This document shows positions 1 to 54,286 of a DNA stretch of 64,000 nucleotides, piece by piece (positions within the stretch are counted from its first letter, which is position 1; each line of letters starts with the position of its first letter). The translations under genes and the position numbers were made by a program. The stretch spans positions 21,144,001-21,208,000 of the forward strand of contig CM075987.1 in NCBI GenBank assembly GCA_038087875.1, given 5' to 3'. Source of the stretch: Malacoraja senta (lineage: Eukaryota). The notes under the pieces were generated by a model that worked only from the letters and a program-made list of their open reading frames with translations, searched no databases and was not told where the DNA came from.

Positions 1-2881
1 GAAATATTTAAAGAAGAGTTTTATTGCACTTTCACATTTATACAGATAATTCTGACTTGAAAGTATGGAGAACATGCCACAGAGATGTTAAAAATTCAAT
101 TGGATTGTTTTTAGTTGTTTTTCAAATCTGAGAAGGGAGATGAGGAAATTTAGAAAATAAATTCCTTTCTTTATGGTCTTGGAATATGATGGTGCAATCA
201 CCAATGGAGGAGAAATTAAATGCACAGATAAGCCTGAATTACAGGAGCCTGGAATCTGAGGTCATCAAACTGGAAACTATTGAGGCCATCCAGTGATGAT
301 GATGAGGATGACTGATATACCAACATTAAGCGTCAGGAGGCTGTTGAGGTTGGAAATAGTCATTGTGGTGGAGATGTACAGTTGGTACAGAGTTCATCTT
401 GGAGCTGACGTGATATCAAGGTTGCAAATAGCTTGGTTCAATTTCGAGTGGTTGCAAGGAAAAGGTATGCTTTTGGAAGTTTGATGTATGCCATAGGTTT
501 CTGAGGTTGCTCTCAGTCTTCCTCGTGTTTTGAACGTGGAAATTGCTGCTCATTTTGTTCATGTTGTTGGAAAAGCCATCTAATAATTTGCTGTGTGTCG
601 AGGTGAAAAGAGGTGGCAGTGAAGTTGAGCAGGCTCAGTGTCCATGTACATATCAATGCAGTGGTTTCTGCTAGGAAGAAGTTCTGTTCTCAGCTAAGTG
701 ACAGCCTCATGCATCACAAAAAAGCTTACGGCATTTGTATCAAGGATATTTTGGCTCAATGTTTTCAGTGTGCTTAAAAGGTACTAAATGCTCATAACAG
801 AATGTACTGTTGTAAAAAAGAGTCAACATACTTTCTGGAATCCAGTCAATTGTTACTGAAAGTTATTAAATTATATAAACTTTTATTTTAGAGGATAAAC
901 CTGGCTGATTGGGCATTGGGTTAGGCTGACCTGTGCTTTAGGATCTTGCATTAATGTTGTTTTCCATTGTAGCAATACGCAGATTAACATTAACCAATAT
1001 GAGAACTCTGTGAAATATGAATGGTAGAAATATAATTTTGCACCCGTCTGTGGTTAGATTTTTGTATTTAGAACAATCTAACCTGTTTGTTTTTGTTTCT
1101 GGGAAGGCCTTGAGAGAGTAAGAGAGAGATTTATTAAAAGGATTTAGCAAGCAATTCCTAATGCATAAATCATCCTGCAATAAATTTATTGCTGTCAAAG
1201 GCTAAGAAGATTGGAAATATTCAACTGGTCAGTCACATCTGAAGAAAGGTCATCGTGTGGAAATATTAACTGTTTCTCTCTCTATACATACTGCCCAACC
1301 TGATGTGTATTTAAAGACATTTGAGTTCTTACTTGCCCTTGATACATATTTGCCATTCAGTCTCTCAAATCTTTATTCCCATTCTGTTCAATTGGAATGA
1401 TTTGTATCTCCGTTCTATTTTCCTGTCTTGGCTCCAAATCTAGAATTTTCAATTAACCCACTGTCCTGAACCTCTTCCGTTAGCAGAGGGAGGCTACATG
1501 CAAACGGGAAGAACAGCGCCTCATATTCCACTTGGGTAGCTTACAATTCAACAGTATGAACATTGAATTCTACAGTTAGTTGGTGTGCCGATGTGGTTAA
1601 CAGTCATAAAAGACCATTTTGGCCAATTGCATTTATGGCCATGCTGCTGTAAACACAAATCCACCTCTGTAGCAGATTTTGCCATCAAACTTAATTTAAT
1701 CTGCCAAAAGTAGTTTGAGGGCACTGGATTAATTTAAGAAAAAGGCTTGAATGTTATCTCTGCTTCTGATATTGGGAAAATTAGCTTCTTTTGGGTCAGT
1801 GAAATTTTTTTATTAGCAGATTTGTAGTTTAATGCACCTCATAACTCATTAAGGCATGAGGGGGAAGGAAGTGGGTGAATGGTTGGGAATTAGCCCCGAG
1901 TAGCAACTGTGTGAGGGTTGTTGGACAATGGTATGGGCATAGCTCTTGTTATCCTTTCAGGCTTTACAATCATCTGTGTGAGAGGGAGGAAAAGAGAGCG
2001 AATTTTGAGTTGATGCAGCATTTTGAGTTGAGTTAATGAAAGTGGTGGAACTATGCAGCAGGTGTTGGCAATGTTCTAAATACCATGCTCTGAAAATGGG
2101 ATTGGTACATGGAAATGCTATCAGTTATTGAAATTAGGTCAGTTAAAACTACGGAAAGCTAAGTGAACTTCTCCAATTTGTTTCTTCGCAGAATGTTAAA
2201 TGTGTGGGTCTTGATATTTGAGCCAGTCTTTTGAAGCTAGCAACGAAGAAGGAATAACAAATCATCAATGTTGTTGAAATTATCCAATACCCAAATTCCC
2301 TCGGTGCTGTGCTGGCCAGCAATACCCATCTGGTTTCATTTATCATGAAAGTCAATTTCTGGAAATGCACTTTTTAAAAAGATTTCACTCCCTTTTTGTG
2401 TGAGTGTAATCCGTATAATCAGGCCCTGGAGTGGGTGGGTCTTGAAGAGTCTTGCTATAATACATCTGAAATTGGGATCATTCTTGTCTTTCCTTAACCA
2501 TTCTTTTGATTCCCTGCTTTCCTGGGACAACTGTTTCTCAATTGAACAGTTTGGTAATACTGTCTGTAAAGTGGAATAATGAAAAGATATTGACTATTTC
2601 AGCATTTGCATTGATTGAGTGATCTGTAAGTGCAGAAATGATGCGCAATAAAAAATTGTAAAGTTCAAAATTCGCTCCTACAAGCAATTCTCTTTAAACA
2701 TTTTTAAACTAAATATTCACAAGACAGTTTGGAAGATTTTTTTATTTCAGCCATTCTAAAAGGTAACCCTGCAGTCCTGCTGTAGCAACATCCAGCCTAA
2801 ATTAGCCAAGTATTGTCTTGAAACTACTTTTGGCAACGTGTTATTCTGCCCGTAAATTTCTCTTTGGATTTTAGAATCATA

Positions 2882-3982
2882 CTAGACCAAGTGCAGGGTC
2901 TGCTCCCCCAACGCACCCGTTCCCTACCCGTAGCCCCCATGGGAGGCGTGGTCCTCCAACTCAAGCAGTTCCCGAATGTAAGATACAGCACTCCCCTGCC
3001 TCCATCAGCAGTGGGCTTTAAAAAAAAATCCAATTGCACCTCCCCTGCGTGTTGCAATAGCAATTCGCCCTCCCCCTCCTGTGAACTGAAAGGTTCAGAG
3101 TGTTCCTGTGTCGCAACATTCTATCGAAGTGTGTTGGAAGCTGGCAGGAATGATTTTAATGAAAAATGTGAATCAGAATATGTCTGCTCCCCCAATGGTG
3201 AGTCTCCCAACGCAATATTCCACCACTCAGCTGTTTCCCCCATCGCAACTTAACCCGTTCCTGAACGTAAGATTCCAGCACTCCCCTGCCTCCCTCAGCT
3301 TTGGACTTAAAAAAAATTCCAATTGCACTTCCCCTGCCTGCCGCACCAGTTCCAACTGTAATACTAATTGGCCCTTCCCCTCCTGTTGAAAAATCCCATT
3401 GAGGTGAAAAGTTCAGAGTGTTTCTGTCTTGCAACTTTGTATCGATCTTCAGTGAAGCTGATCGCTGTTAGCTGAGCCATTGTGACATCATCAGTTGAAG
3501 CTGGTCGTTTTAAATTTAATGTCTTTTGATTTTTTTTTAAACTTTAATCAGCAATGTCAACAAATAACGCATAAAATGTTCAGTGAAGGTGATCTCTGCC
3601 TAGAGGGGAAATGTGTGAATCAGAATATGTAAAAATCTTGTTAAAGTTGGCATTTTTAACACCTTAATTGCGAAGAGGGAGTTAGATGTGGCCCTTGTGG
3701 CTAAAGGGATCAGGGGGTATGGAGAGAAAGCAGGTACAGGATACTGAGTTGGATGATCAGCCATGATCATATTGATTTTTTTAAACTTTTTATCAGTAAT
3801 AAGTCGAGAATAAGTAGAGAAATAAAGCATAAAATGTTCAGTGAAGGTGCTCTCTGCCTAGAGGGGAAAAATGTCAATCAGAAGATGTAAAAATGTAATC
3901 GTTACCGTATAGTGTTTGTGCGAATATGTAAAGACAACCGCATATATACACATACAAGATCAGAGTTTTAATAAGTATATGA
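2882..3982 (-). mobile_element. Probable non-autonomous Helitron with internal duplications and a nested CR1 tail
   Basis: On the - strand it starts A|TC (3982) and ends CTAG|T (2882). Duplicated internal blocks at ~2970-3125 vs 3255-3445 and 3530-3640 vs 3775-3900; CR1 3'UTR piece at ~3665-3775. Confidence 0.65.
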
Positions 3983-8445: not shown

Positions 8446-10503
8446 TCTTTTCTCCATATCCATGCCAGTTTATGTGAACCCATCACATATTACTTCTGGA
8501 ATAAATGCAATGAATAAATTATTTAAGTGTGTTTTAATTAAACTGGTAAAGAAGGGATGAGTTAGCCTGTAACCTGTAATTTTCCCCACACGCTGTTGAG
8601 TACCTTATGTTGCTCACTGAAATTAACACTCGAATCAACATTTGCAATATCTATTGCAGTCCTTGAATCTGAAGCGCTGCAAAGAGCAAAATGGAATAAT
8701 GCAAGAAGGAGATTGAAAACCAAGCTGAAGAGATGAATTTTAAGGTACTTTGTCTTGAGCAACAGAAACAATGAGGAAAGTGGCTTTGATACATGGTAAT
8801 GGTGGAGACACCGGGAACTGCAGATGCACAAATCTTGAGCAAAACAGTGCTGGAGTAACTCAGCGGGTCAGGCAGCATTTGTGGAGGGAAAGGATAGAGA
8901 ATGTTTTAGGTTGGAATCCTTCTTCAGACTTTGGGTATAATTATGCATTCTTTCAAGGGCAATGAATTCATAGAGGCCTTAAAATGGCCCACTGCCCCCT
9001 ACCAACATAAAAGAACATATTTAAAAATGGGACTGTGGATGGGAGATCTGCCAACTCCGATGTGGGATTGGGAGCCACCAAAAGGGATGACCAGGGAGCT
9101 ACAACCAATGAATCGGAAGTATTTGAGATCTGGGACCCACAGCCTGAAGGTGAGGTGAGTCCCATTAAAACATCACCTTGCTGAAACAAGATTTGAAAGA
9201 AAAACCGATGTGGAATTTGAGCGATTGTGTTTTGTGGAGTTTCGTGGACTGAAGGTAGTGTAATATATTGCAAAAGGTATAAAGGTGGCCGCAATTGTTG
9301 CACATGCAGTAAAGGACAAGGATATCCATGAGCTTTTATGAATAAACAAAAAAGATTTGCATATATATTGTGCATTCATAACATTTGTGTTGTCCTCGCC
9401 TACATTACAGCATATGAAGTGCTTTTGAAGTGCAGTCACTGCTGTGATGTAGGAAATGTGGCAACTGACTTGCATGTAGCAAATTACCACAAATATCCAT
9501 GAGATGACTAAATGTCTGATGATAATGTTGAGCAAAGATATTGACTGTGGAAAAACTCCCTTTCCCTCTTTTGAAATAGTATGCATTTTTATGTTCATCG
9601 TACAAGGCAGTCAGGACTATGGTTTAATGTGTCATCTGATAGGCAGTGCCTCTGACAGTCCAATTAAATAATCAAAGAGTCCTCCATGTGCTTGGTGTTT
9701 GGGAATTAAAGGCGTGGGAAAAAAAAGTAACCTAACAAATCCTTGTCCTCTGGAATGATCACTTAGATAAAGAGAAATCAGAGCATAAGCAATGTCAGCA
9801 ACCTTTTGAGCCTAATGGTGTGTTTCCGTGCTGTAAAAGCTATATAATTGACATTGATTACATACATTATTAATAATGTATCTGCTTGAGTAAAAACAGA
9901 TTACTAAGGTAGAGAAAATGAGTTTCAAAATAATGCGATGTGTTCTGAAATAGAATCGGTGGACTACAGAATAATAGGATGACTAGAGGCATTTCTAGCC
10001 GTGTAAGTGGATTTGAATTGCTTTTGGGACAAAGAGCAGAAAATAATCATGCGATCATTTAATCAATATTCACATTCCTTTATGAATTTTGCACTTTTTG
10101 ACAAAAGCACATAATGGAAATTCAGTTGACTATGTCGCACAGATGATGGGATTGGGACAGGCATCATCCAGATGAATTGCATATTGGTATTTATGTTTTG
10201 TATGTAAATCAGGAGGAACATTCAAATTTAATTAGCTATATTGTTAAATGATATTCCACAAATGCCGTTTGAATTAAGTTATGAATGAATTATGAACATT
10301 GTAAAAGTAGACATTTTTAGACAAAATTGTACAAAACATAAATTTGCCATGTTGTTGACACTTAAAGACATGCTTTAACTGTCAACAACATGACAAACAT
10401 AACTTCACATATGGAATTAACTTCAAGTACTGTGCAAAGCTCTCTAAAATTTTGAGTTTTGGACAGCTTGGTTATTCTTGCTGCACAGGGATTTACAAAC
10501 TAA

Positions 10504-11470: not shown

Positions 11471-13747
11471 TTTTACTTGCTGTTGAACTTGGTTGTCTCA
11501 AAAAAGGTAAATTATTTTCCGCTTTATATACCGAGTCTTGCGCTTTCCATTTCATCAATGGTATTAGTTTTACCATGTAACCATGGCCATCATGACCTTG
11601 GTATCCCAAAATGCTTTACAACCAAGGTAGGGTAATCACTGTCTTGGTGTAGGAATAACACAATGGATAATTTGCACACAGTTTTTCATTTTCCCCCATC
11701 TGTCAACTGCTCATGTACAGAGTACAGTGGTCCTATGTTGATCCCCATATCTAGGTTGTGTTCCAATGAATTTAAAACCACATCTTTCCAGTATATTTTT
11801 TGTTAAATTTAATGTCCTCTTTTCCTGACTAGTCAAGAAGCAAATGCTAAATTAGAATATATGACTTATCATTTAGCATTGTTCAACTAACTTTCAGAAT
11901 ATGGTCAGTTGAATCTTATTGTGTGCTGATCTGAATGCAAAGCAGAGACCATCACTTTTCTCAAACCTTTGGGTTCATTTGCTGCAATGAATTTGGACTA
12001 TTTTTGTCCAGTTGAACCTCTAATTAGCTGAACCAAGCAATGATGACACAAGGAACTTCAGATGCTGGAAACTTGAACAAAACATAAAGTGCTGGAGGAA
12101 CTCAGCTGATCAAGCAGCATCTGTGGAGGTAGTGGATGGGCAGCGATTCTTGTTGGGACCCTTCTTCGAGCTGATTGTCTCCCGCCTTCTACATGTCGTC
12201 TGTCCATTCCTGCCATAGATGCTGCTTATCCACTGAATTCCAGCATTTTGTTTTTAAAATATGGAATGTTAATGTTTGATCGATGATTTATATGGTTGAA
12301 AGATGGGTAGTGCCGGGATACTGCAATCAGCTTCAATTGACACTGGAGTCAGTTGAGTGACAATAGCAGAACCCATTTGAATATGGTTGTGTAAATTTAG
12401 AATCAGAGAGTGATTTATTTTTGTATTAAAGATAAACCTAAATGCATCCCTTTCTGGCTAAATGGAATCTAGTGTATATTAAGTTTCAGAGAATGATGTC
12501 TCTTTGAATGAATTTTACAATCCGTCCTACTACCCTGCTCTCTCAGAGTTGTAAAACTTTCCTTGTCCAATTTATATTTGGTATAAATATCTCATTCACT
12601 TTTGAATATCTTTATTGAATCTCTCTATAGAATTATGTTGCTTGATATAAGAGGTAATTTTGATATGGAGAGAATAAAACTCAATAATGCTGCTACAATT
12701 GAGCATTTTGGAAACTTAGGAGAGGAAGAAAAGTTACAAGACAAACAAAAATATATGAATTTATTTAACATGGAACATTGTAATTTTGCAGGAAGAGATT
12801 TTTTGTTGAGTTGGGCAGCATCTCTGGAGAACATGGATAGAGAACATGTGCAGGAAGGAACTGCAGATGCTGGTTTACACTGAAGATAGTCACAAAAAGG
12901 AACCCAGCATGGGGGGACTGCCGTGAGGGACGGTGGGAGAACAAAGGGGGACCCGGTGTGGGGGAGGGACAATCTTGTTTTAGAATCCTCTGCCCAGGGG
13001 GATAAGGCTGTGTTTGTTTGTTCGTTTGTTCCGGTTAAGGCGCTGTGCACACGGCAGGCAGCCGACAGTCGCTTGTCTTTTTCTTTTTTTTCCCTCACAC
13101 TTTTAATTTAATTTTAATTTCAAGTTTTCGTGTAGCTTATGTGTTGTGACTGTTAGCAGACTAATTTCCCTCCGGGGATGAATAAAGTTTTATCGTATCG
13201 TAAAATGCTGGCGTAACTCAACAGGTCAAGCAGCATCTCTGGAGAAAAAGAATAGGTGACGCTTTAGGTCTGAAGAAGGGTCTCGACCTGAAATGTTTAC
13301 CTATTCCTTTTCTCCATAGATGCTGCCTGACCTGCTGAGTTACTCCAGCATTTTCATAAGATAATAAGTGATAGGAGCAGAATTAGGCCATTGACACATC
13401 AAGTCTACTCCGCTATTCAATCATGGCTGATCTGGCTCTCCCTCTTAACCGCGTTCTCCTGCCTTCTCCCGATAACTTTTGACACCTGTTTTGTGTCTTT
13501 CTTATGGATGGACAACATTTTAGGTTGGGAACAGGCAACATCAATGGCATATGAAGACTGCCAGTTATGATTATTTACAGTGCGCTGCATTCTATCGCGA
13601 GATTCAATAAAGATATTCAAAAGAGAATGGTCCTGACCCAAAATGTAACCTATCCATGTTCTACAGAGATGCTGCCTGATGCAGTTACTCTAGCGTTTTT
13701 GTGTTTTTTGCTCAAGATTCCAGCATCTGTGGTTCCGTGTGTCAATT

Positions 13748-18637: not shown

Positions 18638-19907
18638 TATGAGAATAACATGGTACCATTTTTATTTTTCATACATATTTCAATAAAGAAGGTATTCATC
18701 TCCCCTTTCAAGGTTGTTTTTCCATTTTTTTTTCTCTTTTTAAGAGTAAAGAAGATCTCATCTCTTGAGCATTGCACAATGTGTTCCAGGGATGGGGACT
18801 CTGATTCCGGATATTTGGCTGCCGTAAAATGGGAGTGAACTTTTTTATAACAGTAGAGGGAATAAGCTGGAACAAAACACCAGTTTTTCCGTTTTAGTTT
18901 GAATTGCAAAGGCTTTGCCTTTTGGTGATTCGAAGCTGTGAAAATCTGCAAGATTTGTATTTGCGTTGCAAATGTCTAACCAGTATATTATAAGACAATA
19001 TCTTGCACCGAGCCAAATAAGGATTTATTAATAAAGCTGACCAAAACCTTGGTCAAAGAAATGGATGTTGAAAAATATCTGAAAGCAGCACAGACAAACA
19101 AATTTAGGGAGGGAATTCAAGGACTCATTAATTTTTGATCCTTTCAGCTGAAGTGTAAGAGGTATTAAATAGTGTTGTCTTAGAGCTCTGGTACGCAAGA
19201 GAACTTGCGCCAGGAATGCATTGGAATAGTTAAATCTAGTGCTAATACAATCATCGGTGAAACTTTTTAACAGTAAATTGGCTGAGGTCAGATTGAGTTG
19301 GGGAAATTTAAGAGGAAAGTTTGGACATAAAATGACTTAAAATTACAGGTTGGGGTTCAAGACTTTGCAAGACTGTGTTCTTAGCCCTTTACTGTATTCC
19401 CTATACATGTGACTGCAACCAAATTATGTTCCAATTCATTTAAAGTTTGCAGAGTGGGCAGGATTACAAATAATAACGAGGCAGAGTACGGGAAGGAGAT
19501 CGAGAGCTAAGCTGCATGATGTGAAGCGAACAAACTGTCCCTCAATGTCAGAATAACGAAGTAGCTGGTCATGGACTTAAGGAAGCGGGGTGGAGTACTT
19601 AGGGTGTGGAATTTGAAGTTTGGCCATAACAAAGTAGATTGGGAGATGAAGAATTCATCTTTACTTGCAAGAGGATTATTGAATTCTTACTCTCTCAATT
19701 CACCTCATTGCAGTACTTGCACTTATTTATCTACACTTTCTCTGTAGCTGTAACACTACATTGTTTTTCATTTTTGCATTACCTCGATGTATGTACTTAT
19801 ATATGGCCGGATCGAACACAAAACAAAGTTTTTCTCTGTATTGCGGTACACATGACCATAATAATGACCATGTCACTGTGCTAGCGTATTCAAGTGTTAA
19901 TAGCAAT

Positions 19908-20710
19908 GAGTCTGAAGAAGGGTCCCAACCCAAAACATCGCCGACAATGTCCTCCAAACTTCCTGCGACTCCATCCAAGATATTTCCTCCCTCGACTCCG
20001 TCCAAGGACCCTGACAGTCTTTCCAGGTGAAGCAAAGGTTCACTTGCACCTCCTCCAACCACATCTACTGTTCCAGGAGTGGACTCCTATATATCAGCGA
20101 GACCAAGCGCAGGCTTGGCGATCATTTCGCTGAACACCTCCTCTCAGTCTGCCTAAACCTACCTGATCTCCCAGTTGCTAAACATTTTCACTCCCCCTAC
20201 CATTCCCACACTGACCTTTCTGTCCTGAGTCTCCTCCATTGTCAGAGTGACGCCCAGCGCAAATTGGAGGAACAGCATCTCATATTTCGCTTGGGCACCT
20301 TGCACCCCAGCGGTATGAACATTGACTTCTTTAACTTCAAGTAACCCTCTATCTCCCTCCTCTCCCCCTCCCTCTCTCCCCACTTTATCTGTTTCCTTTG
20401 TTGTCACCTTCTCCACGCTAACAATGATCAATTATTTTTTTTTGCTTGGTCTACACCTCTTTTGAAGTCTTGTTTTCACACTTTACTCTTCCTTATCTTT
20501 GTGTCTCCCTCTCCCCTGACTCTCAGTCTGAAGAAGGATTTTGATCCGAAACGTCACCCATTCCTTCTATCCAGAGATGCTGCCTGTCCCGCTGAGTTAG
20601 TTACTCCAGCATTTTTTGTGTGCTCCAGACATATTGCCTAAACTGCTGAGTTACTCCAACACTTTGTGTTCCACACAAGATTCCAGCATCTGCAGTTCCT
20701 TGTGTCTTCT
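19908..20710 (+). mobile_element. Penelope-like element 3' fragment with GIY-YIG remnant
   Basis: ORF 20027..20344 (LLYISETKRRLGDHFAEH...LIFRLGTLHPSGMN); terminal sequence like 28430-28530 with hammerhead-like motifs at 19912 and 20528. Confidence 0.85.
20525..20558 (+). ncRNA. Putative minimal hammerhead ribozyme
   Basis: CTGAAGA-A-GGAT(TTTG)ATCC-GAAA-C-GTC; stem II differs in sequence from other copies but still pairs. Confidence 0.65.
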
Positions 20711-22387
20711 GCTACAGCTTCTTTCTGAAAATGAAAACTTAAATTCTTATCAAGCCCTGGATACTAAGCAAAATTGATATCCATAAGCATACAGTTGTTG
20801 GGGAATTTAAAATTGATAGAAATTGTAATTGACCTATGGGTCAGGAAATACGGCTGCACAGTAATGAACAGTTTAAGGCAGTGTTTTACAACATTTGTTC
20901 GATAATGTGGCAGAGCCAGTTTTATCTTGGTTTGGTTTAATATTATAAATACATTTTTCAAGAACTTTGATTTTGAACAATTTACCAATTTACCTCCCAT
21001 AATGTGAAACTCTCCGTATTGCATACTTTAGCTGAGTAGTCAGGACAAAATCCAACAGATTTCGACAACAGCTGTCGATGCATTTCATGATCAGCCAACA
21101 GGAAGTATGACTCAAGCAACATGAGGTGGCCAATTACACTGTAGAACACCTCAGTTCTTCCAGTCACCCAACAAGGAACAGACCACATTCATCCAAATAA
21201 GGTAACTATGATCTCAGTAACAGGAAGCCATACGTTTAAACTAACTTCTTACTTCTGAAGACGTGCATTAAAGTTCTTCATCTGTCTCCATTTTTCTGTT
21301 TAGGATTCACAAGCTAAAGTGTTATGTAGGCAAACACTGCAATCAATCTGCACATCGCAAGATCAAACAAACAGACAGGGCTACAGCATTACAGAATTCA
21401 CTTAGTGTTGCACTGAAGTTTCAGTTTGATTTGCTTACCGAATGCTGGACTGACTTAACAGAGGCATATGCACTGCATATTTTATTTTATCGGTAAGAAC
21501 ACCAAAGCTGTATGGACATACAAACCTCTTGGTGCCCTTTCACCAAGGGGTCGTATTATCGCAGTTTGTGGACCTTTACTACTGTATTCAAATAATCTCA
21601 TAAATGAAGGCCAACATCTCATTTGGCTTCTGAACGGCTTGCTTCAACAATATATTGGTTTTCGGTTATATATAAAACAGACCCTCAGTTCCTTTAAACT
21701 TCAACTTTACCCAAAATCTCACAATTAAAAAATCACTGTTTTTTTGATTTATGCATCAAAATGGATGTTCACTTTCCACATAATTGAATTGAATACTTAA
21801 TTGTCACATGTGACAAGTCACAGTGAAATTCTTTGCTTGCATTCCCAAGGTATGCAAATAGTCACCCATAAAGGGTACTTTATATTGTATTATAATGTAT
21901 TGCATTATTATATTGCATCTGTCATGTTCTTAAACATTCAGCTTCACCATATCCTTTTTGAGCCCCTTCACGCCCTAGTCCTTGCACTCAATCTCACTGA
22001 CCTTGTATCATTAACAAACTTGGAACTATAACATTTCATCCCCTCCATCAAATTGGCCATAATGCGACGCACATTACTGTCCAGTGGAAGCATATAAATT
22101 TATTGGTGGCGATTAGTTGCTTTATTTAACATGAAAAAAACAATAGGCTGTTTCCATGATCAGTTGTTCACAAATTTAAATGAATGGAATTAATCACACT
22201 TAAACAAGCCTTTCAACATGGGAAATGACTCTGGTCTTTTTTGTTTGGCTGGATTATGAAGATTGTAATTCTGTACTTGTACCTTCTCATTTCACGGGCA
22301 CATAACTGCAGAGCTCTTCCCATTTGTGGCATTGTTTTTCAGGTTGTATAAATGGAAATAGTTACTCTTCTTTACACTTTGCAATGT

Positions 22388-22680: not shown

Positions 22681-23499
22681 GAAATAAAGATTGCCACGAA
22701 CTTGCACCAAATATGAAATATTGGAATCCAATGGAAAAATAATGATTGGAGAGAGGTAAAAGCCCAGAAAGGTACTGGAGATATTTAGCAAAATGGTTTA
22801 AGATGAGGGAATTAAGTTGATAGTTTGGAGAAGCTGGCAAGTTCTCCCTGAATCAGAATAGTTATGATGGAGCTAAATAAAATAATCAAGTCTATTCAAA
22901 AGATAGAGAAAACAGGTTAGAAATTTTAACCTTCGTGGAGTCCAGGAATATTAGGACTATACATTAAAAGAGTAAAGTAGAAGAGTTAATTAAATTATGG
23001 ATTGGTAGAAAGATCAGGGGGGATTTTCACACAGAGAATGAGGGGTGTTTGGAGCTGGCTGCTTGAAAGTAAGTTGGAGTAGAAACTCCCACTGCATTTC
23101 AACGCCCTTGAAGAGCTGTAATCTGTTAGGATGTGGGCTGGTAAAGAGGGGTTAGGTTGTATTAACTGGCCCAAACATGATGGAGTGTACAGGTTCCTGA
23201 GTAATACATTTTCTCTGAACCATTGAATCGAATCAGCTAAGAAAGAGTCTCGACCCGAAATGTCGTCTGTCCATTTCCCTCCACAAGATGCTGCCTGACC
23301 CGCTGAGTTCATTCAGCAGTTCTTTTGCTCAATAATCCAGCATCTGCAGTCTCTTGTGCCTCCATAACGCTAATAATTCGCAGGTTTAGGATCAGGCTCA
23401 TGCTAGCCCGTTTAGCATTCTGCAAAAGTCAAGCGTACTTAACTGACAATGGGACAATGCATGTGTTACTTGCAGCAGTATAACGGACCGAAAACAAAA

Positions 23500-24139: not shown

Positions 24140-24145
24140 ATGAAA

Positions 24146-24224
24146 ATGCTGGAGATTTGTCGTAAACTGGTGGGGTGTAAATCAAGGAAGACTCTCTCTG
24201 CTTCATCCAGCTGCTACTTGGAAG
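24146..24224 (+). CDS. ABL1: ABL1 alternative first coding exon 1a ([26 protein letters not shown])
   Basis: Translation matches the recalled human ABL1 1a N-terminus ([26 protein letters not shown]). It has 79 coding nt ending in G|GTAAG (phase 1) and joins exon 2 in frame. There is an in-frame TAA at 24134 and an extra in-frame ATG at 24140. Confidence 0.93.
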
Positions 24225-31159: not shown

Positions 31160-32819
31160 CAGGGCTCGAAATTAGAGGTTGCCCGGGTGCCACTGACCAC
31201 TCAAAGCGCCGCCGGGCAACCTAAACACCGAGTCATTTTGCCCGGCTTGGCAACCAGATACTAGTTTGTACCGAAGATAGACACAAAAAACTGGAGTAAC
31301 TCCGCGGGTCAGGCAGCATCTCTGGAGAAAAAGAACGCAACGTTTTGTGTCGGCGGTGACGGCTGTATTGCGTGGGAAAGATACTATGTGCGGGGTGAGG
31401 AAGGGTCGGAGCGAACGACAGGCCCCGCACAGCAGCAGCAGCGGCTCCATCTTCTCCTCCCGCACCCCGCCCGCCCTGATAAGGGCCTCTGCTTGTAAAT
31501 CCGCTAACGGCGATAACCGCTTTCAAAACAAACCCTCCCGCACGCCAAGGGAGGGAGGGGGAGGCCTCGGCGTGCAGGAGGGTTTGTTTTGAAAGCGGTT
31601 ATCGCTGTTAGCGGGTTTACAAGCAGAGGCCCTTATCAGGGCGGGCGGGAGGAGGAGATGGAGCCGCTGCCGCTGTGCGAAGCCCGTCATTCGCTTCGAC
31701 TCGTCTGAAGCAGCTGCACCAAAGATCTTATAGCTATAGGATCTCTGAGCTGCACTGCCCGTCCCCGCACCTTGCTGTTGGCTGGCAGAGGAGGGAGGCG
31801 GTGGCGAGGAGTTCCCATCGGCCAAGGCAGCGGGGCGATGTTGTCCGAGGAGCGCTGACCTTCCTTCCTACACACCTCTCTCTCTCTCCCCCTCTCCCTC
31901 CCCCTCTCCCTCTCCCTTTTCCTTTCCCTCTCCCTCTCCCTCTCCCTCTCCCTCTCCCTCCATCCCGCACTGATCCCCATTCCCGCGTCTATTCAGTCCT
32001 CACTGACATCCCCCTGTGCTCCCCTCCACATCTACCCCCCCCCCCATCTATTCATCCTGCGCTGATCACCCTATCCACCTCGCATTGATTCTCCTGCCAC
32101 CCCCCCATCCATCCTACACTGGTTCCCCAATACACCCTGTACTTACCCCTTTCCCATCCATCCTGCACTTCTCCTCCATCCATCCTGTACTAATCCACGC
32201 ATTCATCCCGTACTGACCCACCCTCCATTTACCCTGCACCTTCCCCCCTTCCCATCATTCATCCTGTAGTGATCTCCCATTCATCCTGCACACCCTCCGA
32301 TCCACACTGTACTGACCCCCCCCCACCCAATTCATCCTGCGCTGATATCCCCCCCATCCATCCTGTACTGATCCTCCCATTCAACAAGAATGGGGGGAAC
32401 CGTCTGAAGGGTCTCGACCTGAAACTTTGCCTATTTCCTTCGCTCCATAGATGCTGCCTCACCCGCTGAGTTTCTCCAGCACTTTTGTCTACCCCCATCC
32501 ATCCCATACTGAACCCCCCCCATTCAACCCCACTGACATCCCCTGTGCTCTCCCCTCACAATTTTACCTACTCCAACCAACACGTACTAATTCACCTGCC
32601 TCAATCTATCCATTCTGCACCGACTGCCTTCTAATCCCCCACCCCCGCCATCTCATTGAGTATAATTCCGACTGGTAACTACGCACTTCGTCCGAGCACA
32701 TTATCGCACGCATCATGCAAGCCATCTTAAATGACCACCTAAACTGTCATTTGGCAACCTAAAAAGCTGCCTAGGTTGCCCGGCTGGCAACAGGGAAAAA
32801 AAGTTAAGCGAGAGCCCTG
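31160..32819. mobile_element. hAT-like non-autonomous element inserted in a microsatellite
   Basis: Termini CAGGGCTC...GAGCCCTG; repeated GGCAAC/GTTGCC subterminal motifs at both ends; flanked by (TA/TG)n so the TSD is ambiguous. Confidence 0.7.
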
Positions 32820-32901: not shown

Positions 32902-32958
32902 ACACACACACACTCACACACTCACACACACACACACTCTCACACACACACTCACACA

Positions 32959-33044
<86 letters not shown>
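32820..33044. repeat. Compound microsatellite (TG)n then (CA)n
   Basis: Directly visible. Confidence 0.97.
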
Positions 33045-33046
<2 letters not shown>

Positions 33047-33064
33047 TAAACAGATAAAATGCAA

Positions 33065-33470: not shown

Positions 33471-33686
33471 CCAAAAATACTGAATTCAATTGTCCAGAAA
33501 CACTCAAGCCTGTCCAAAGGAGGAACTGAAACGGAAGGAGACAGCAATGGGAGATTGTAGGGCAGATTTAAAGAAAGCAATGAAAGAGTAACTTGAAAGA
33601 AACCATAGGAGTCCTGCAGTTGTTTTGAATGCCTTTAGATTAATGAAACAATGTAGATGGGAAGCAGCATATATTAGAGTGCAGTT

Positions 33687-33929
33687 AGACACAAAAAGCT
33701 GGGGTAACTCAGCGGGTTAGGCAGCATCTCTAGAGAGAAGGAATGAGTGACGTTTCGGGTCGAGACCCTTCTTCAGACTGATCAGTCTTTTTCAGATCAG
33801 TCTCAAGAAGGGGCTCGATCCGAGATGTCACCCGTTCCTTCCCTCCAGAGATGCTGTCTGTCCTGCTGTTACTCCAACTTTTTGTGTCTACCTTCGATTT
33901 AAACCAACATCTGCAGTTCTTTCCTACAC
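33687..33929. mobile_element. Short fold-back PLE-terminus element with 16-bp TSD
   Basis: Imperfect inverted arms around ~33790; ATATTAGAGTGCAGTT at 33671-33686 and 33930-33945. Confidence 0.85.
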
Positions 33930-36469
33930 ATATTAGAGTGCAGTTGATTACCATTGCAGTCTATCTTCTTCCATTCATTGTTACATTCAGTTGCTTTTGT
34001 CTTACTTTCCTCAGCATAAACATTAATTGCTTGTGATGATGTTCAAATACAGACTTATTCCTATTATTACCTTATTACCTATTCCATCGCGCCATAGATG
34101 CTGCCTCACCCGCTGAGTTTCTCCAGCAATTTTGTCTACCTTCAAATACAGACTGAAGTGTATGAACATATTTTGATTGACTTTCTCATATGAAAGCACT
34201 TGAAATTCAAATGCTACAAAGGTTAAACCTTGCAATGCAACCTAAGGGTGTAATCTAAGGAAATCGCTAGTCTTGTATTAAGGGAGCGCTGTGTCGTTTG
34301 AGATGTTCACACTCAAGTGTGATGTAAACCATTTCATTTGCTTTCCCAAATAACTGCTGAAAATCCTGCACCATGAGGACCAGGATTCTTGTGTTCTGAC
34401 ATAGTTCATCACTTAGTGGTATTTTCCTATGCCACACATTAACACAGACCTTTTTTATCCTTTGCTCTTCCACATTCTTTCTGTACATCTCAAATCTAAT
34501 TGCCTTTTGTTCTGATTAGAGAGTGTGACTAAAATGTTAACACAGTCTCTGTGCCGATGTTTCCTCTCTGTGAACTTTTAAGCTGTTTTTATTTCCTTGT
34601 AACTGCAAACACATTTCACTGTTGCTTTTTCAGGAAATTACCATGTATAAAATGTCACTGCTCATTATTAAATGTTTTTGATCTATTGAAGGATGTATTA
34701 CAGGACTGTCAAAATATTATCTTGCTTTAGTTGCTGTCACAGATTTCCTCTTGTTTTGTAATTCTTTGGAGATGATCTGCAGAACTGGCAGTGATTTTGT
34801 GAGGAACTCCTTTGTACCGTAACCTCAGTGCTTGCTTCATTGAAAACTTGAAATTAATATTCATGACAAAACACGGAAGACTGAGGAATTTTAATTGCCA
34901 TTGTTTCCACCCTGATGTTGTTCTAGACATAGAATCATAAAGTAACAGCACAGAAAATGTTGATTAGGCAGTGCTGAATCTTTACCAGGGCACGCCAATT
35001 AATCCCAGTCCCTGCTCTTTCCCCCGTTACCCTGAAAATATTTTCTGAATCTGCTTAAATTCTTTCACGTTGTCTATTCTAAAAAACACTACCTTGTTTA
35101 CCTCAAATTGTTAATCACAAATTTGTATTCTGGTTATCGATCCTCATATGAAGTGGTGTTTTTGAACTTGCAGGTAGAGATGGAGGATTGTGCACTGGAG
35201 GGTGGAATGTGCTTGCAGCAAAATATGCACAATTTCTACCACCAATAACTAAATTTTGATCTGGTGATTTATATGGCATACAGGAAAATTTGTCGAGGAT
35301 GTTTTTAAATGGTCTGCAGGTCTATATAGAACTGCGCTGAAGTCGTTGCACCTTTTATTCAGCCGAGAAAGTGCTTATTATTGAAAAAGGTAATCTGAGA
35401 TATTATGGAAGGCATGCTTGATATTTAAATAGTGCTTTATGTCTGTATGTAATTTGCGCATTGAATTCCTTTGTATTAAATAATTTGATTACAATCTAAA
35501 TGGCAGGCTTGAACTTTGCTTCTCAATGACATGCTAGTTTTTCAGTTTTAAATCACGCTCATCAATGTTTTGTCTTTACAAGTATTGGGTGTGACGATGA
35601 GCTATAATTTTAAAGGTAATTAAAGACTTGGGGTAGGAAATGGGTGTGTTATGCTACAGGTGTCCAAGTCTTGACACTTTGCCAGGCATCACCAGTGGGT
35701 ATTGTCACCCTCCAAAAACTTTGATTTATTGTCAACTTTCAAAGGCTTTGATTTGTCAATTTCATTTTTTTATGTTGGAAGCACTTGCCTCAAATTTCAG
35801 AAATTTAAAACGTTTACTTTTCCCGTGTATGTTCTGTCATCGAGGTACCAGTGCAGCCAATCCCAAACCCCGAAACTAGTAGATCATAAACACAACCCGA
35901 AGTTAGTTCAATCCTGGGGCAGATTAGAAGGCAGCGTCTGACAGTTTTATAGCTTTGCTGGGTTGGGGAGGCATCAAATAACAGGTTAGCAAACAAAGGA
36001 TTTGCAAGGCAGAAGTGGCATTCAGCACAACTGTTCAATGTTAACTTTTATGGGCTGCATGATCCAATTTCCATTGTGCCTCTCATCTAATGCGAAGATA
36101 TGAAGCTTGGAAGTTTCTCATAACAAATGAGGGCAGGAATAGCTTGTCTGACCCTTTGAGCCTGCTCTATTATTCATCGAGATTATGACTGAGAATTTCT
36201 TCCAGCACCATCTCAATATCCAAAGATTCCCTAGCAGGGAGAATTAAGATACTATGCCCAGAAATCCATTCATTTCTGTCAGAAATTAACAGAATACCAG
36301 AGCTTCTACAGATGTCTGAAGAAGAGAATGCCAAAAGAACAAAGTCCTCTTAAGTGAATAAACTTCCCCTTATCTCAATCCTAAATGTCCCACACTTTAT
36401 TCTCATATTGTATCCCTTGATCGAAATGCAAAGTGCTGGGTTAGGTAGTATCTGGGGAGGGAGTAGACT

Positions 36470-37235: not shown

Positions 37236-39674
37236 ACTAATTGGAAAAAAAATACGCCTGCGGGCTGGATCTGGCCAGTGGGCCTTAGGTTGCCAACCCC
37301 TGTCCTAGATGGCAGGCCTCATTGTGGGCCCCCCCCCCCCATGTTTTAAAAACGATTTGTATGTATCTATGATATGCTTCAGATCTTCTGACCCTGATTC
37401 TAGACACTCGACCAATGGAAAAATCCTTCCTTCATCTAGCCCATGGAACCTTTTTAGAATTTTTGATGAAATGTTTTGTCCTAATCTCTCAAGAATACAT
37501 TTCACTTTCTCCCCCCTTTTTCAGCAAACCCACCAACCCTGATGTTACAAGTGAATTGTTACAAGTGTATCCGTTCTTGGGCAAGGAGACTAAAACAATA
37601 CGCATCATAGGCAAGCTCCCCTGTTATTATAACTGTTTAGGTAATGGAAATTCAGGCTTTGAGTTCACAAATCTTGACCCAAACAATTGGAATAAAATTT
37701 GCTTTTTCAAAATTAACGTGGAATAAAAAGTAAATACCAATTTTTTTTCTCTAACATTCATTTCTTGACGCATGCGCAGGTGATGCTGCTTCGCATTAGG
37801 GAAAGTTGCAATATGGACTGTTTTCACGGAATGTAAAACCCACCTATCCTCAATAACGCAGGGTAATCTACACTGCAGGTGAGATCTCACCATAGCCCTA
37901 CCTAATAGCAAGATGACTTCCTTACCCTATCAATATTTTTTTGTCCTCGGCCATTTCTTAGCTTGACCCAATAAATTCCAATTCTGCATCTTTATTATGT
38001 ATGTCAAGATCACTTCAAGCAACTGTACCAATCTTATTTGTTAATAATGCTAACCAACCCCATTTTCCTTTCTGTCTGTCCTTATTGTTAAATATCCTGG
38101 AATCTTAAGTTTCCAGCTTTGGTCATTCTGGAGCTATGTTTATGAAACATCAATTTGCTTCTGTTTTCTGCTATGAATTCACCATTAAATCATTTACCTT
38201 GTTATGAATGCAGCAAGAATTCAGATTAGAATTTTGTCATGTTAACATTTTTCTAAACATTACTTAAATTTCCTCCGAGCCACTATTTTTGTATGCCTTC
38301 CGTCAGTGTGTAACATGTGGTTTAATTTCCTTTCATTAAATCTAATGAATCAATCTTTCAAGCCATTCCATTTGCCAATAGTATTGATGTTTTTCATCAG
38401 CTTTGAGGGGCAGTTTGAAATTCGTAGAAATATTGTTAGCTATTGGTCATGCTGTTACTTTTGGTTTTGCAAAGCAGTGGTGTCTAGATACTGACTGATT
38501 TCGCTGATACTTTGGCAATAAATAAAGAAACTTGCACAAGCAGAAAATACCTTTAATGTGGAAAAACAAGTCTTGACAATTCAAGACAGAAGAAAATGAA
38601 GAGTCAAGAAGATGTGATTGTAGCTCTTTGAATCCTGGGATTAAGAGTGGGACAGGAAGATTTTGCCTCTTGAGCTATGAATTGTGGCTGCATGTTAATA
38701 CATGAATGTTCAAAGGCATTTCTCAAAGTGATTATAAATTCCTGCAATAACTACATTTTCACAATCCTGCATCTGAGATGCGGAAATTGGATCCTGTTGT
38801 GAACAGAAAAATATGTACTTAACATTTTATTTGGCTTCTCTATGATGGGGTAGAAAAAATTATGTTATGATAATTCAATTGTATGATGGAGAAGGTTTAT
38901 AGCTCCAATGGTATTTGATATTTGATTCTATAAAGCTATTACATAAAAAGTAATATAAAATAATTAAATGTAGAAATAAAAATGTTCTTATGGTACAGAT
39001 GGTGTTGAGATACACATTAATAATTCTACTTTTACATTCTTCTGAAGCCCTCCTGTCTGAAGTTTGACATAAATAATGGATAAATTAGGTGTTGCAGAAT
39101 ATTAAGCAACTGACTGCAGATAGCAGAGAAGGGACACTGGGCACTTTCAACTAAAAAAAAAAAAAAAAGGATTTTGAGTAAAGTTGGGAGAAGAAGCTCA
39201 AAAAAGTTAATAAATATTGCTTTGTTAAATATAAATTGAAAATATATGAAGCACTCAGCTAGTTAAACCAAGTGTAAAGATTTTCACAGAAGGTCTTTTC
39301 TCAACATGTCACAACTACGAGATTTAAATGTTCTCTGTGGATTTGCGTTTGGAACTACTGAGACCTGTCACCTATTCCAGTTTATAATTCCACTTCGTAG
39401 CATCTGCATTATTTTACCTTTGTTGTTTAGGCTTTGTACAGAAGAATCAGAAAAGAAGGCTCTTGACCCAAAACGTCACCTATTCCTCTCCAGAATTGCT
39501 GCCTGTCCCACTGAGTTACTCCAGCTTTTTGTGTCTATAATCTGAATTAATTAATGATTTGCACATTTGCTTGGTATTTCGTGTTTTTAGAAACCCAAGT
39601 TCACAATGGGTAAATGTAAAGTGTGTTGGAATGAGAAGAATTAGGAGGCAAGTTGAGCTTTGTTGCAGTGAGGC

Positions 39675-45489: not shown

Positions 45490-47190
45490 GAGGCTGGAGT
45501 AAAAATGCAACTACTGGAAAAACTCAGTGGGTCAAGCAGCATCGATGGAGGCAAGGGCATAGTTGATCTTTTGGGTTGAGACGTTGCATCCAGACTGGGT
45601 GTACAGAAAAGAAGGCCAGCATAAGATGTGAGAGAGAGGGATGCGACAGAGTCTGGTGGATGATAGATGAAACCAGATGATGGGCTGTTGGAGCCAGTTG
45701 GGAGAAGGAGTAGAGGAGCGCTGAGACAGCGAGTAGTAGGTTAAAAGTGGAAACACAAGAAATAAAATTTGTCAGATGGAGCCAGGGATGGGTAAGGGTA
45801 GAGACAGCGGTTAAATCATAAGATAGGGATGGATGATGGGTACATGGAACCAGGTGGGAAACAGAACAGGAAAAGTGAATAAAGGGAGAAAAAACCCAAG
45901 GTAGCTGGGTATGTGGTTGATGGCCAGATGGAAGATGTAGCATGTAGTGGTGGAATCCCAGAGAACTGTTGGAAGTGGTGAAGGATGATATTCTGGATAC
46001 AGAGGCTAACAGGGAGAAATGTGAGAACCAGAGGAGCTCTGTCTCTATTCTTACCCAGAGGAGAGGAGGATGGGGGAATGAGAGCGGATGTGTGGGAAAT
46101 GGAGGAAATTCACGCGAAAGAACCAACTGCAGTGAGCAGGCCATATTTTCTGGAGGATGTAATTTCAGAAATCGTAGTAGCGTAGACAGAGAAACTGAGG
46201 ATAAGGGATGACATCTTTGCTGTAAATCTACAGGCTCCCACAGCTACCTCAACAGCACCTTCGCCCACCCTATCTCCAGAAGTAATCCCTTCTATTGTGG
46301 CTCCATCTCTACTGCATCTTTTCTCAAGATGGGGATTTCCGTTCTACGACTTCTTGCATGACCTCCTTCAGAAATTGTGGCTTCTCCTCAGCCATAGTTG
46401 ATGGAGCCCTCGCATGCACTTCCTCCATTTCCCACTCGTCTGCTATCACCTCTTGCCCCAATCCTCAAACTGAATAGAAATCGAGTTCCCCGGCCACGAG
46501 CTTTTACCCCATTAACCTCCATGCATAGCCTATCATCCTTCAACACTTCCACCAGCTCCAATAGGACCCTGCCACCAGCCACATCTTCTGTTCTGCCCCA
46601 TTTCTGCTTTCCGCAGGGGGCAGTCTATCCATAACTTCCTGGTCTGTTCATACTTTCCCTTCCCATTTCCATCCTTTGATATTTTCCCCTGCAAAGAAAG
46701 GATGTGTAACATTTGCCACTGCAACGCCACCTTCCCTCTCCAGAGAAGACCTAAACTGCACTTCAATGGGGTGTAGCAAGATAATTCACGTGCACCTTTC
46801 CCATATTAGTCTGTTGTATTTGGTGCTCATGGATGCAGTGGCTTCTATGTTGACATGACCAAGCATAGTCGGGGTCATCATTCTGCAAAACACCTAGCTT
46901 CTGTCTGCAACAGTCATCTCAAGTTTTCTATCACTTCTTTACCCTCCCTATTCCCACATTGACCAGTCTGTTCTGTGCCATCTTAACTGCCACGACGAGG
47001 CCAGGCGCAAAGTGGGATAACATCTCATATTTCACTCGGGTAACCTGCACCCAATGGTTTAAATGTTTAATTTTCCAATTTAAGGTTACCCACTCCCCAT
47101 GTTCCTTTCCCATTCCCACTTGTCCACCCAGCGTATGTGTCTCTGCTCACCTTTTCCATTCCTTCCCAGCATCTGCAGTCTCTTGTGTCT
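45490..47190. mobile_element. Old divergently arranged Penelope-like remnants
   Basis: Left part resembles the PLE end in minus orientation; 46220-47190 resembles decayed RT-end/GIY-YIG sequence plus the terminus in plus orientation. Confidence 0.65.
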
Positions 47191-47504
47191 CTATTGTATA
47201 GAGGTTATTCCATCATAAACCACACTGACCATGAATTCAAATAAATGAACTGTCTTGATTATGTTGGCAAGCTGTTGGTCAGATCAACACACTGCCAGCT
47301 AGGATCCAGCCTTTGTGAGCTCTGTGGCCTTGTGTAACCCGACATCTGGAAAGTGATTTTTGCTCGGTTCAGTCTCAAAACATTGCGGCATTATCAGTAG
47401 TTCCAATATTGACCATCTTTTTATTTCAATGGAAAATCCAAAGGTCTGAAATGATGTGTGTAGCTTAATTTCTCAACATTGAAGCAAAAATCGAGTGCAT
47501 TTAC

Positions 47505-52895: not shown

Positions 52896-54099
52896 CATGA
52901 AGATTTCAAGTATGGGATGCCACAGGAGTGGAGTTTGATGAACCATGGTACATCCAGTGTACTGATAAGAAAAAATATGGGTGTCAGGATGTAATTTTGC
53001 TTTTTGTGAGCATAAATATTGCAATCATTAATCGGTTGGATGAAAGGCGGATAGTTAAATTTTGTCATGCATTTTAAATTTTGAAGCTGTTCTGCCATGA
53101 TTGAGATGGGAAGCAAACTTTGAAATGGGAAGTTGCAGGACAAATCCTAAATGTTATATATTTTGAAGATATGTTACAGCCACTCAGAACGATATAAAAC
53201 CATATGACATATAATGTAAATGAAAATCTGAGGAGGGCACAAGGCCCCTTGAGTTGACTCTACACCTAATAATATTGTTTGGTTGATATTTTGTCTCATT
53301 TCCTCTTTTGTACACAAAATTCCTTCTTTAATATACATGTTTAAAAATCTCTGATTGTACAAAGTGGTGTTGAATAATGGTTTCCATACTTAAGTGGGCT
53401 GCAAGCAGAGAATGAATAAAATTCTGCTTATCTTTTTGTTAATCTCAGGCTGCTACAGTGCAGTGCGCTGATTGACCCAAGGGCCACAGGTTGAGAGCAA
53501 TTGTGGAATTAAGTTATGATTGCTCAATTTGTCAAGATTCATTAGTGGTTAAGTATTGTGAGATGTGTGCAAATTGGATGTCACAAAATGTTTTGAAAAT
53601 GTGCCAGATGACTAGTTTTCCTTGTGTTGCTTCGATATAAAATATGACAATTGCAAGACCATTTTTAATGCAATTTTTTAAGTTTGTAAAGGTACATGAG
53701 ACGATTGAACAATGATATCTGCCAACTTCCACAAGTCTGCCTGCAATAATGTTTAATAAAATAGAGATATTAAAATTGTATTATCATTGCTGATAGTGGT
53801 TTAGTGAAAAGCATTTTCACGTGTGAGACTTAATTAATTCACTAGGTTTACACTCAAGGCCAATAGTGAGGGAATGCTGCACCATTGGAGACATCATTTT
53901 TTTTGGATGACATTTAATCAGAGACTCTGTTCGCTCTCAGTAATGGACCTCACTGCACTGGTTTGCAGCAGTGTAGAGGAGTTGTTCATGATGTTTTGGC
54001 CATAAATACCCTTTAATCAATTTTATTGAATGACCAGATTAAAAAATCTCATAGCTGTTAACAGAAGCTGATAACTAAGCAATATTGGATGTAATGATG

Positions 54100-54286
54100 G
54101 TAGACAAAAGTGCTGGAGAAATAGGCAACGTTTCGGGCCAAAACCCTTCTTCAGTCTGAAGAAGGGTTTCGGCCCGAAACGTTGCCTATTTCCTTCGCTC
54201 CATAGATGCTGCCGCACCCGCTGAGTTTTTCCAGCACTTTTGTCTACCTTCGATTTTCCAGCATCTGCAATTCCTTCTTAAACACA
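54100..54286. mobile_element. Short fold-back PLE-terminus element with 14-bp TSD
   Basis: Inverted arms centred at 54155 (CTTCTTCAG-T-CTGAAGAAG); TGGATGTAATGATG at 54086-54099 and 54287-54300. Confidence 0.88.

Follow-up and report, generated by a model that had tools for sequence, protein, structure and literature searches.

What are the short hammerhead-like motifs that recur around the gene ABL1 of Malacoraja senta, and do they cut its pre-mRNA? The window, i.e. the whole stretch of DNA analysed, comprises 64,000 nucleotides (nt) of the GenBank assembly GCA_038087875.1 (contig CM075987.1, positions 21,144,001 to 21,208,000). A first-pass annotation had described in it a dispersed family of minimal hammerhead ribozyme cores throughout the ABL1 introns and had linked this family to Penelope-like elements (PLEs). 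Very probably, the motif is part of a repeat that represents the 3' end, or pseudo-long terminal repeat (pLTR), of an abundant Neptune-type PLE family, whose copies decayed neutrally after insertion and do not cut the ABL1 pre-mRNA in any meaningful way. For ABL1 itself the copies probably do nothing.

The bare core motif CTGANGA occurs 56 times in the window against 36.7 +/- 5.7 expected. Only 12 of these matches lie within family copies and the other 44 are near chance level, and the bare excess was rejected as a family signal. Extension to CTGANGA-N(4,34)-GAAA gives 19 matches against 6.6 +/- 2.3 expected. With a strict descriptor (CTGANGA-N-stem II-GAAA-NN-TH, i.e. the core, a stem II of at least 3 bp, GAAA, two complementary bases and TH) seven minimal type I hammerheads are found, at 13270, 20528, 28437 and 54156 on the plus strand and at 27706, 33776 and 54154 on the minus strand. 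They are the seven positions that had been listed as intact. They correspond to five insertion events, because 27706/28437 and 54154/54156 are each the two arms of a single insertion. The same descriptor yields no site in 194 and one site in six of 200 dinucleotide shuffles.

The ribozyme motifs at the seven sites are real and not chance matches. That they arise from chance or from the assembly, e.g. from a fold-back read yielding the 918-bp palindrome at 27613-28530, is scarcely credible, even with 459-bp arms that are 100% identical and joined without spacer, and with 44 CTGANGA matches close to the chance level outside the family. Seven descriptor sites stand against at most one in any shuffle, and a repeat profile of the family has no match in the reversed window. 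The fold-back artefact is rejected on the palindrome's outer ends, which are unequal, and on a direct 14-bp duplication outside them, neither of which a fold-back would produce. The identity of the arms may reflect youth, conversion or assembly polishing.

All seven sites possess CUGANGA, GAAA and UH in the order of the type I core, with helix II closed by G10.1-C11.1 (G-U at 10.1-11.1 in 13270), and all have an extra A between A9 and position 10.1. Helix III is replaced by a palindromic ACGT without loop 3 in six sites and by ATGT in 13270, in agreement with the PLE-type minimal form that had been proposed. Helix I has two to three contiguous pairs in five sites and none in two. Stem II, first read in one case as 5 bp with a 2-nt loop (GGGTC-TC-GACCC), is better read as 4 bp with a tetraloop (CUCG, UUUG or UUCG); a loop of two nucleotides is not feasible. 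Intactness holds for part of the seven only: ACGT together with at least two stem I pairs is retained in 20528, 27706/28437, 33776 and 54156, whereas 13270 is damaged (C11.1>T, C15.2>T) and lacks a contiguous stem I, and stem I is gone from 54154 as well.

The family is real and has more members than first listed, and its motif belongs to a longer element rather than being a free-standing core. A repeat profile built on 13 window copies, which match it by construction, gives 29 matches at E <= 1, of which 25 have E < 0.001 (14 on the plus and 11 on the minus strand, 2,367 bp in total). The six decayed copies named earlier (1239, ~8925(-), 19912, ~23237, ~32403 and ~56690(-)) all exist. The repeat unit is about 135 nt long and consists of the ribozyme, a conserved stretch of 60 nt and an optional tail of about 35 nt. 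A tree of 14 copies has no starred branch, and a subfamily of 28437, 54156 and 32403 is at most suggested. Rfam has no hammerhead family among 43 window matches at E <= 10; its best matches are microRNA models on microsatellites and hairpins, all under the gathering score. For a minimal form without helix III, this miss would not be informative on membership among the minimal hammerhead ribozymes (min-HHRs). The family pattern has zero matches in each of the metagenome, prokaryote-genome and viral collections.

"Throughout the ABL1 introns" stands in part. Intron 1a holds 11 of the 25 copies (six plus, five minus, a balance with little power) and one lies after exon 3; the other 13 lie 5' of exon 1a and are intronic only if exon 1b is located upstream. 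Shark ABL1 proteins with a 1b-type start exist and no exon of this type is present in the window, so that exon 1b probably lies upstream of it.

The link to PLEs is now direct, through endonuclease remnants, tails, inverted arms and target duplications that adjoin the ribozymes. GIY-YIG remnants end 183 nt before core 20528 and 116 nt before core 28437, and the repeat unit is continuous with remnants of open reading frames (ORFs) in three insertions. Relatives of the window GIY-YIG peptide are proteins with reverse transcriptase (RT) and GIY-YIG domains, and their alignment displays YIDD, a C-X4-CxxC linker and the endonuclease; among nine homologues scanned, GIY-YIG exceeds the Pfam cut-off in two and is sub-threshold in seven. 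A CX2-5CxxC linker marks the PLE clades Neptune and Nematis (PMC8557442), and linker and vertebrate host together point to Neptune rather than Nematis. In zebra shark, the protein model P0004 continues into a peptide similar to a translation of the ribozyme region, an indirect hint that the motif is present there too.

The insertions have the layout described for PLEs, i.e. 5' truncation, an adjacent inverted copy and a tail of 30-40 bp at one end (PMC8557442, PMC3846280). Target duplications of 14-16 bp flank four of the 16 insertion units examined; matches of at least 14 occur in ~0.06% of ~3000 random window pairs. Three of the duplicated insertions are inverted pairs with the tail on one arm only, and thus combine all three insertion traits of endonuclease-positive (EN+) PLEs (inverted 5'-truncated arm, one-sided tail, target duplication). 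The largest, at 27578..28530, has its 35-nt tail on the left arm and its 14-bp duplication at 27565-27578 / 28531-28544. In the pair 33671..33945 the minus core (33749-33776) is intact and the plus core at 33802 dead (G5>C, A14>G); in the pair 54086..54300 the intact plus core (54156-54183) lies in a hairpin of -112 kcal/mol and the minus core (54127-54154) has no stem I.

The perfect 459-bp hairpin at 27613-28530 in intron 1a would make long double-stranded RNA in the pre-mRNA, likely a substrate for editing or small interfering RNA production.

Related elements indicate where the ribozyme is maintained. A protein-alignment scan gave 315 confirmed relatives, of which 80 loci underlie the following counts. 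The endonuclease end is included in 45 loci, 41 of them with at least 300 nt beyond it, and 14 of these 41 possess a sense-strand minimal hammerhead 87-200 nt downstream of the endonuclease. The strict descriptor matches the 80 loci 21 times in sense and twice in antisense, with no match in the reversed control. Three window copies were aligned with eight motifs from other loci (seven of the 23 strict matches plus L008, chosen for family coverage). In these 11 rows, 91.9% of the cells of stems I and II are paired and seven of nine pairs changed on both sides, a score reached by none of 500 shuffles; the two inner pairs of stem I hold in all 11 rows, with changes on both sides in four and six rows. 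This pattern argues that the ribozyme is under selection in the parent elements.

As a separate observation, loci L032 (minus 1789, plus 3960) and L048 (minus 2372) have an inverted copy 5' of the ORF with this minimal hammerhead on it, a layout also present in the window.

Among the window copies themselves, the stem II covariation reported earlier dissolves into one double change in one copy (20528) and G-U wobbles, not above shuffles. With 15 rows aligned (one arm per identical pair, copies missing most of the core omitted), covariation is not significant (43/500 shuffles for paired cells, 116/500 for the score). Non-CpG core cells are changed in 18 of 150 cases against 61 of 513 control cells (p = 1.0), and 12 variants of this test, which has low power, gave p = 0.06 to 1.0. 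The two CpGs of the ribozyme are changed in 20 of 60 cells, and 17 of these 20 changes are C>T or G>A. Such changes at CpG are the mark of methylation-driven decay. Inserted copies thus appear to evolve neutrally, at a power that leaves room for weak selection.

The proposed course of an insertion is as follows. The PLE endonuclease would nick AT-rich DNA and the RT would start in the 3' tail, by analogy with the Anolis element. Copying would mostly stop early; the insertions retain only the last ~135 nt, starting with the ribozyme, and often have a second, inverted arm. For the Anolis PLE, two RT start sites one tail apart are described (PMC11167929); a similar pair may explain the tailed and tail-less arms here, e.g. 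the 35-nt difference at 27578. The ribozyme fold would be selected in active parents, where tandem copies could dimerise via ACGU, dimer cleavage by PLE hammerheads being described in a review (PMC6765202). Inserted copies would then decay, mainly by CpG transitions, as the low-powered counts above indicate, and, to judge from predicted folding and geometry, would not cut the ABL1 pre-mRNA meaningfully.

Several results weigh against this interpretation. Neither of two window endonuclease peptides has a Pfam match, target duplications are absent from 12 of the 16 insertion units, and no full-length element with flanking pLTRs is present in the window, so that the parent is reconstructed from fragments and relatives. 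A sense-strand hammerhead is absent from 27 of the 41 related loci, and eight of the 41 have weak antisense matches of another form under a relaxed descriptor. The 11 rows of the cross-family alignment represent only about five to six families and were picked by a descriptor that requires stem II, so that only the stem I signal is non-circular. In the most core-favouring of the 12 decay variants the core is changed in 11 of 130 cells against 71 of 475 in the control (p = 0.06). Finally, plain random truncation does not predict the distribution of 5' ends.

On a scale with C3 as +1 and the cut before +29, the 25 copies have five 5' ends in the long untranslated region (UTR) or ORF, about twelve at -5 to 0 (two of them assigned by eye, with core deletions), three in the core or stem II and three at +25 to +32; the remaining two copies are a tail fragment and an internal duplication. 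The 3' ends lie at the tail or a little ahead of it. Clustering of 5' ends at -5 to 0 could result from stalling or fold-back of the RT, from a start site or from a splice acceptor.

The latter options lead to another RNA template with the same origin and inertness. The ~135-nt unit could be a non-autonomous, SINE-like (short interspersed nuclear element) or retrozyme-like family, in which the Neptune enzyme copies, in trans, a short RNA that starts at a defined point just upstream of helix I and contains an uncut ribozyme and the RT-initiation tail. We regard this as possible, though clearly the less likely template. About 12 of the 25 copies begin within ~5 nt upstream of C3, and the 40 nt upstream of them contain 25-65% pyrimidine against 75-95% in the long-UTR copies, so that the UTR is truly absent. 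The boundary in the long copies, a pyrimidine tract followed by CAG/TCTGA, would fit the usual consensus of a 3' splice site as well as an initiator-like TCAGTCT. [quoted passage not shown] Against a short RNA, the window contains no tandem array of the unit, and in three insertions the unit runs on into remnants of the ORF. The same cluster would result if the RT stalled or folded back at a site that is structured and self-complementary, and the observation is post hoc and comes from one window. A tRNA-derived SINE head was rejected, no tRNA gene being found.

The idea that the short elements are ribozyme-processed mobile RNAs, with cleavage setting their ends and the cut or circular RNA as insertion template, fares worse and is improbable. 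Three of the 25 copies (12193, 12847 and 34075) start at most 4 nt from the predicted cut; one of them shows a stuttered junction and is flanked by a clean target duplication of 14 bp, and another directly follows a tail. The direct pair 19912/20528, 616 nt apart, has a layout able to release a unit-length RNA, but its upstream core is dead. Most copies hold the whole uncut ribozyme, about 12 of them starting just 5' of the core, and their ends lie at the tail rather than the cut site; uncut RNA is described as the dominant in vitro template of the Anolis element (PMC11167929). Three cases among few truncations, singled out post hoc, are a weak hint of cleaved templates.

The junctions of 12811-12898 (-) and 34042-34154 (+) lie at or next to the predicted cut, with the tail joined to post-cleavage sequence in the former and the stuttered 5' junction within the target duplication in the latter. 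At 19906-20712 the order hammerhead - endonuclease fragment - hammerhead is retrozyme-like.

Cleavage of the ABL1 pre-mRNA by the copies is unlikely. A monomer cannot close helix III, so that a dimer is needed, and the intact sense cores of intron 1a, 28437 and 54156, lie 25.7 kb apart. Each is preceded by its own antisense arm, which is transcribed first and which, as modelled, zips the core, making cleavage unlikely: the predicted stem II probability is 0.000 for both in context (<= 0.001 for all four sense sites), and opening them to a dimer-ready form would cost 68.0 and 45.8 kcal/mol, a step that takes 10.0 and 5.6 kcal/mol when the arm is left out of the model. In vivo masking of the sense copies is inferred from these predictions. 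The suggestion that sense copies pair up to cut the intron is therefore not sustained for the two intact copies of intron 1a, and a core base is changed in 8 of the 15 aligned copies.

Core 20528 is located 5' of exon 1a and is the sole intact copy in sense orientation that no antisense arm adjoins. Two closely related proposals centre on it. The first is that sense copies dimerise via ACGU, in cis or with other PLE RNA, and cut the ABL1 pre-mRNA enough to matter, e.g. at 20528 in a 1b transcript. Three intact sense cores are present, helix III could pair between any two of them, and 20528 retains its core, with a G-C to A-U change in stem II, in an otherwise decayed element. PLE protein enabled cleavage by the Anolis PLE hammerhead in vitro (PMC11167929), and an intronic ribozyme of Cpeb3 tunes mRNA levels (PMC10919898). 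This reading is nevertheless very unlikely. Besides the masking of 28437 and 54156, the nearest direct neighbour of 20528, 19912, has G12>A, and 20528, though unmasked, favours another local hairpin, with 8.5-9.3 kcal/mol needed to open it. Its stem I has two contiguous pairs only. The best dimer folds score -19.8 to -39.4 kcal/mol; the modelled active dimers, at +8.4 to -11.2, lie 13-37 kcal/mol above them. These energies are only indicative, core contacts and Mg being outside the model. In the literature, the schistosome minimal motif had no monomer and weak dimer activity (PMC4209133), eight of nine Xenopus dimer elements remained uncleaved (bioRxiv 10.64898/2026.07.22.740005) and no RNA-seq ends are reported at the Anolis site (PMC11167929).

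The second proposal extends the first: selection would keep 20528, which, as a dimer with other PLE RNA and perhaps aided by PLE protein, would cut the ABL1 1b pre-mRNA ~3.6 kb upstream of exon 1a and shift the 1a/1b balance, while head-to-head insertion would act as an antisense lock that renders the other intronic sense copies harmless. It is just as improbable; if true, regulation of ABL1 by a trans-dimer ribozyme would be new.

By its sequence features the element works like, and would be classed with, the min-HHRs that EN+ PLEs carry in their pLTRs, the linker making it Neptune-type. The min-HHRs described from the pLTRs of metazoan PLEs (PMC4209133, Cervera and De la Pena 2014) share with the window copies CUGANGA, the extra base before G10.1, G10.1-C11.1, GAAA, the palindromic 15.2-16.2 without loop 3 and the short helix I, and they likewise occur mostly as solo copies from truncated PLEs and as opposite-strand pairs. 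The window helix II (4 bp and tetraloop) falls at the short end of the published range, and the two to three contiguous pairs of helix I compare with a published range that includes 2 bp; the palindromic form without helix III is reported there to need dimers (PMC4209133). A search of supplement file 2 of that work gave no shark or skate example (PMC4209133). Neptune EN+ PLEs (PMC8557442, PMC3846280) share the C-terminal GIY-YIG, the CX2-5CxxC linker, strong 5' truncation, the inverted arm, the 30-40 bp tail and target duplications, but the window holds fragments only, with duplications of 14-16 bp against 8-10 bp in the rotifer examples. Poseidon_Ac of Anolis also has a pLTR hammerhead, but belongs to a different PLE clade and its ORF starts in stem II (PMC11167929).

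Non-LTR retrozymes (PMC7229834; bioRxiv 10.64898/2026.07.22.740005) are likewise short, non-coding type I hammerhead units tied to PLE pLTRs, but form head-to-tail tandems with a complete ribozyme in consecutive units, whereas the window copies are solo or head-to-head. No tandem of at least two consecutive complete hammerheads is present in the window, the pair 19912/20528 being the only direct one. Intronic host ribozymes are single-copy, self-folding and conserved across species. The window motifs differ from these as repeat copies that need a partner and that bear no significant sign of post-insertion selection. Shared with the HDV-like (hepatitis delta virus-like) ribozyme of CPEB3 (PMC10919898) and the amniote intronic hammerheads (cited in PMC4209133) is the position on the sense strand of a pre-mRNA.

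A literature search of limited reach, and thus a weak negative, found no work specifically on hammerheads of elasmobranch PLEs; a 2026 preprint sampled one chondrichthyan (bioRxiv 10.64898/2026.07.22.740005). The family is an ordinary repeat, which adds a skate- or ray-like genome to those with PLE minimal hammerheads, and it calls for caution with intronic ribozyme matches, since such motifs in fish introns are usually transposon ends. The in vivo role of PLE hammerheads is described as unsettled (PMC8557442, PMC11167929); in a family so abundant and with clean target duplications, a pile-up of 5' truncations at the cut site would be a fossil record of cleavage in vivo, and one just upstream of helix I would point to a defined short RNA. 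The features of the window are compiled in Table 1.

Table 1. PLE-derived features and ABL1 exons in the window (positions of the window; "." = both strands or no single strand)
Positions	Strand	Feature	Remarks
19906..20712	+	5'-truncated PLE copy	in order: dead hammerhead 19912 (G12>A); remnant of linker and GIY-YIG, interrupted by an in-frame stop; UTR rich in pyrimidine; hammerhead 20528; internal duplication of 54 nt; tail
19964..20344	+	GIY-YIG endonuclease remnant	57% identity over 129 aa to shark PLE protein P0003; tblastn E 8e-40
20528..20555	+	intact minimal core, C3 to C17	stem II of 4 bp with UUUG loop; two contiguous pairs in stem I; cut predicted to follow 20555
27578..28530	.	single PLE insertion, two head-to-head arms	perfect palindrome at 27613-28530 (459-bp arms, directly abutting)
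28072..28320	+	C-terminal GIY-YIG remnant	mirrored 27823-28071 (-); 85% identity to Leucoraja erinacea protein, 65-68% to shark RT+GIY-YIG proteins
28437..28464	+	intact minimal core, GUU site	predicted to be masked in sense RNA by 459-bp hairpin
27679..27706	-	same core on inverted arm	antisense to ABL1
33671..33945	.	short head-to-head pair	16-bp target duplication; tail on plus arm only
54086..54300	.	short head-to-head pair	14-bp target duplication; tail on plus arm only; ABL1 exon 2 follows after ~560 nt
13191..13355	.	older head-to-head pair	plus core 13270-13297 CpG-damaged, no contiguous stem I; hairpin -99.6 kcal/mol
12042..12257	.	older inverted pair	dead minus core near 12170; 5' end of plus arm ~4 nt 5' of cut site
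34042..34154	+	short copy, no core	14-bp target duplication; stuttered junction; starts ~2 nt 5' of cut site
45501..47191	.	old decayed inverted PLE pair	remnants of RT-thumb and endonuclease together with C-X4-CxxC linker (46597-46716), both strands
1237..1305	+	very decayed copy	stem II broken; separate endonuclease fragment 1461-1571
8804..8931	-	decayed copy with tail	G12>A
12811..12898	-	tail joined to fragment	fragment starts 1-3 nt 3' of cut site
13624..13744	+	decayed copy	truncated within core
23235..23363	+	decayed copy	5' core minus one base, C15.2>T; tail present
31255..31353	-	truncated copy	truncated within stem II
32398..32491	+	decayed copy	3-nt core deletion; inside 22-23-nt tandem array
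39450..39539	+	decayed copy	5' core lost, G12>A
56572..56760	-	decayed copy with pyrimidine-rich UTR	G12>A, A15.1>G; after exon 3
24140..24224	+	ABL1 exon 1a	coding part
54853..55017	+	ABL1 exon 2	
56120..56415	+	ABL1 exon 3	SH3/SH2

The window contains further remnants besides the PLE copies. A GC-rich stretch antisense in ABL1 intron 1a, at 29830-30430 (-), is what remains of a ZFP36L1/L2-like gene and probably represents a captured fragment or a pseudogene. Its zinc-finger match near 30295-30425 is to the TIS11d tandem CCCH structure 1RGO (E 3e-13), with some finger residues changed.

Other mobile elements are represented by an open frame of 575 aa at 13867-15594 (-), which matches the Pfam reverse transcriptase family RVT_1 at E 2e-36 and looks like a young CR1-type long interspersed nuclear element; related fragments occur at 29084-29460 and 36514-36705. 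Fragments of another non-LTR family, with RVT_1 and a C-terminal motif labelled ALKBH8_N, are located at 7317-8249 (-), 51271-52696 (+) and 33063-33634 (-), the last two being 89-91% alike. Two Tc1/mariner copies (16981-18640 and 40633-42274 (-)) are 92-94% alike and possess long terminal inverted repeats and transposase remnants. At 31466-31649, in a GC-rich part of intron 1a, two inverted arms of 85 bp (95% complementary, 14-nt spacer) form a hairpin resembling a miniature inverted-repeat transposable element. Simple repeats comprise the degenerate 22-23-nt array at 31953-32519 that contains copy 32403, a (TG)n(AC)n fold-back microsatellite at 32849-33044 and a 38-nt minisatellite at 36808-36981.

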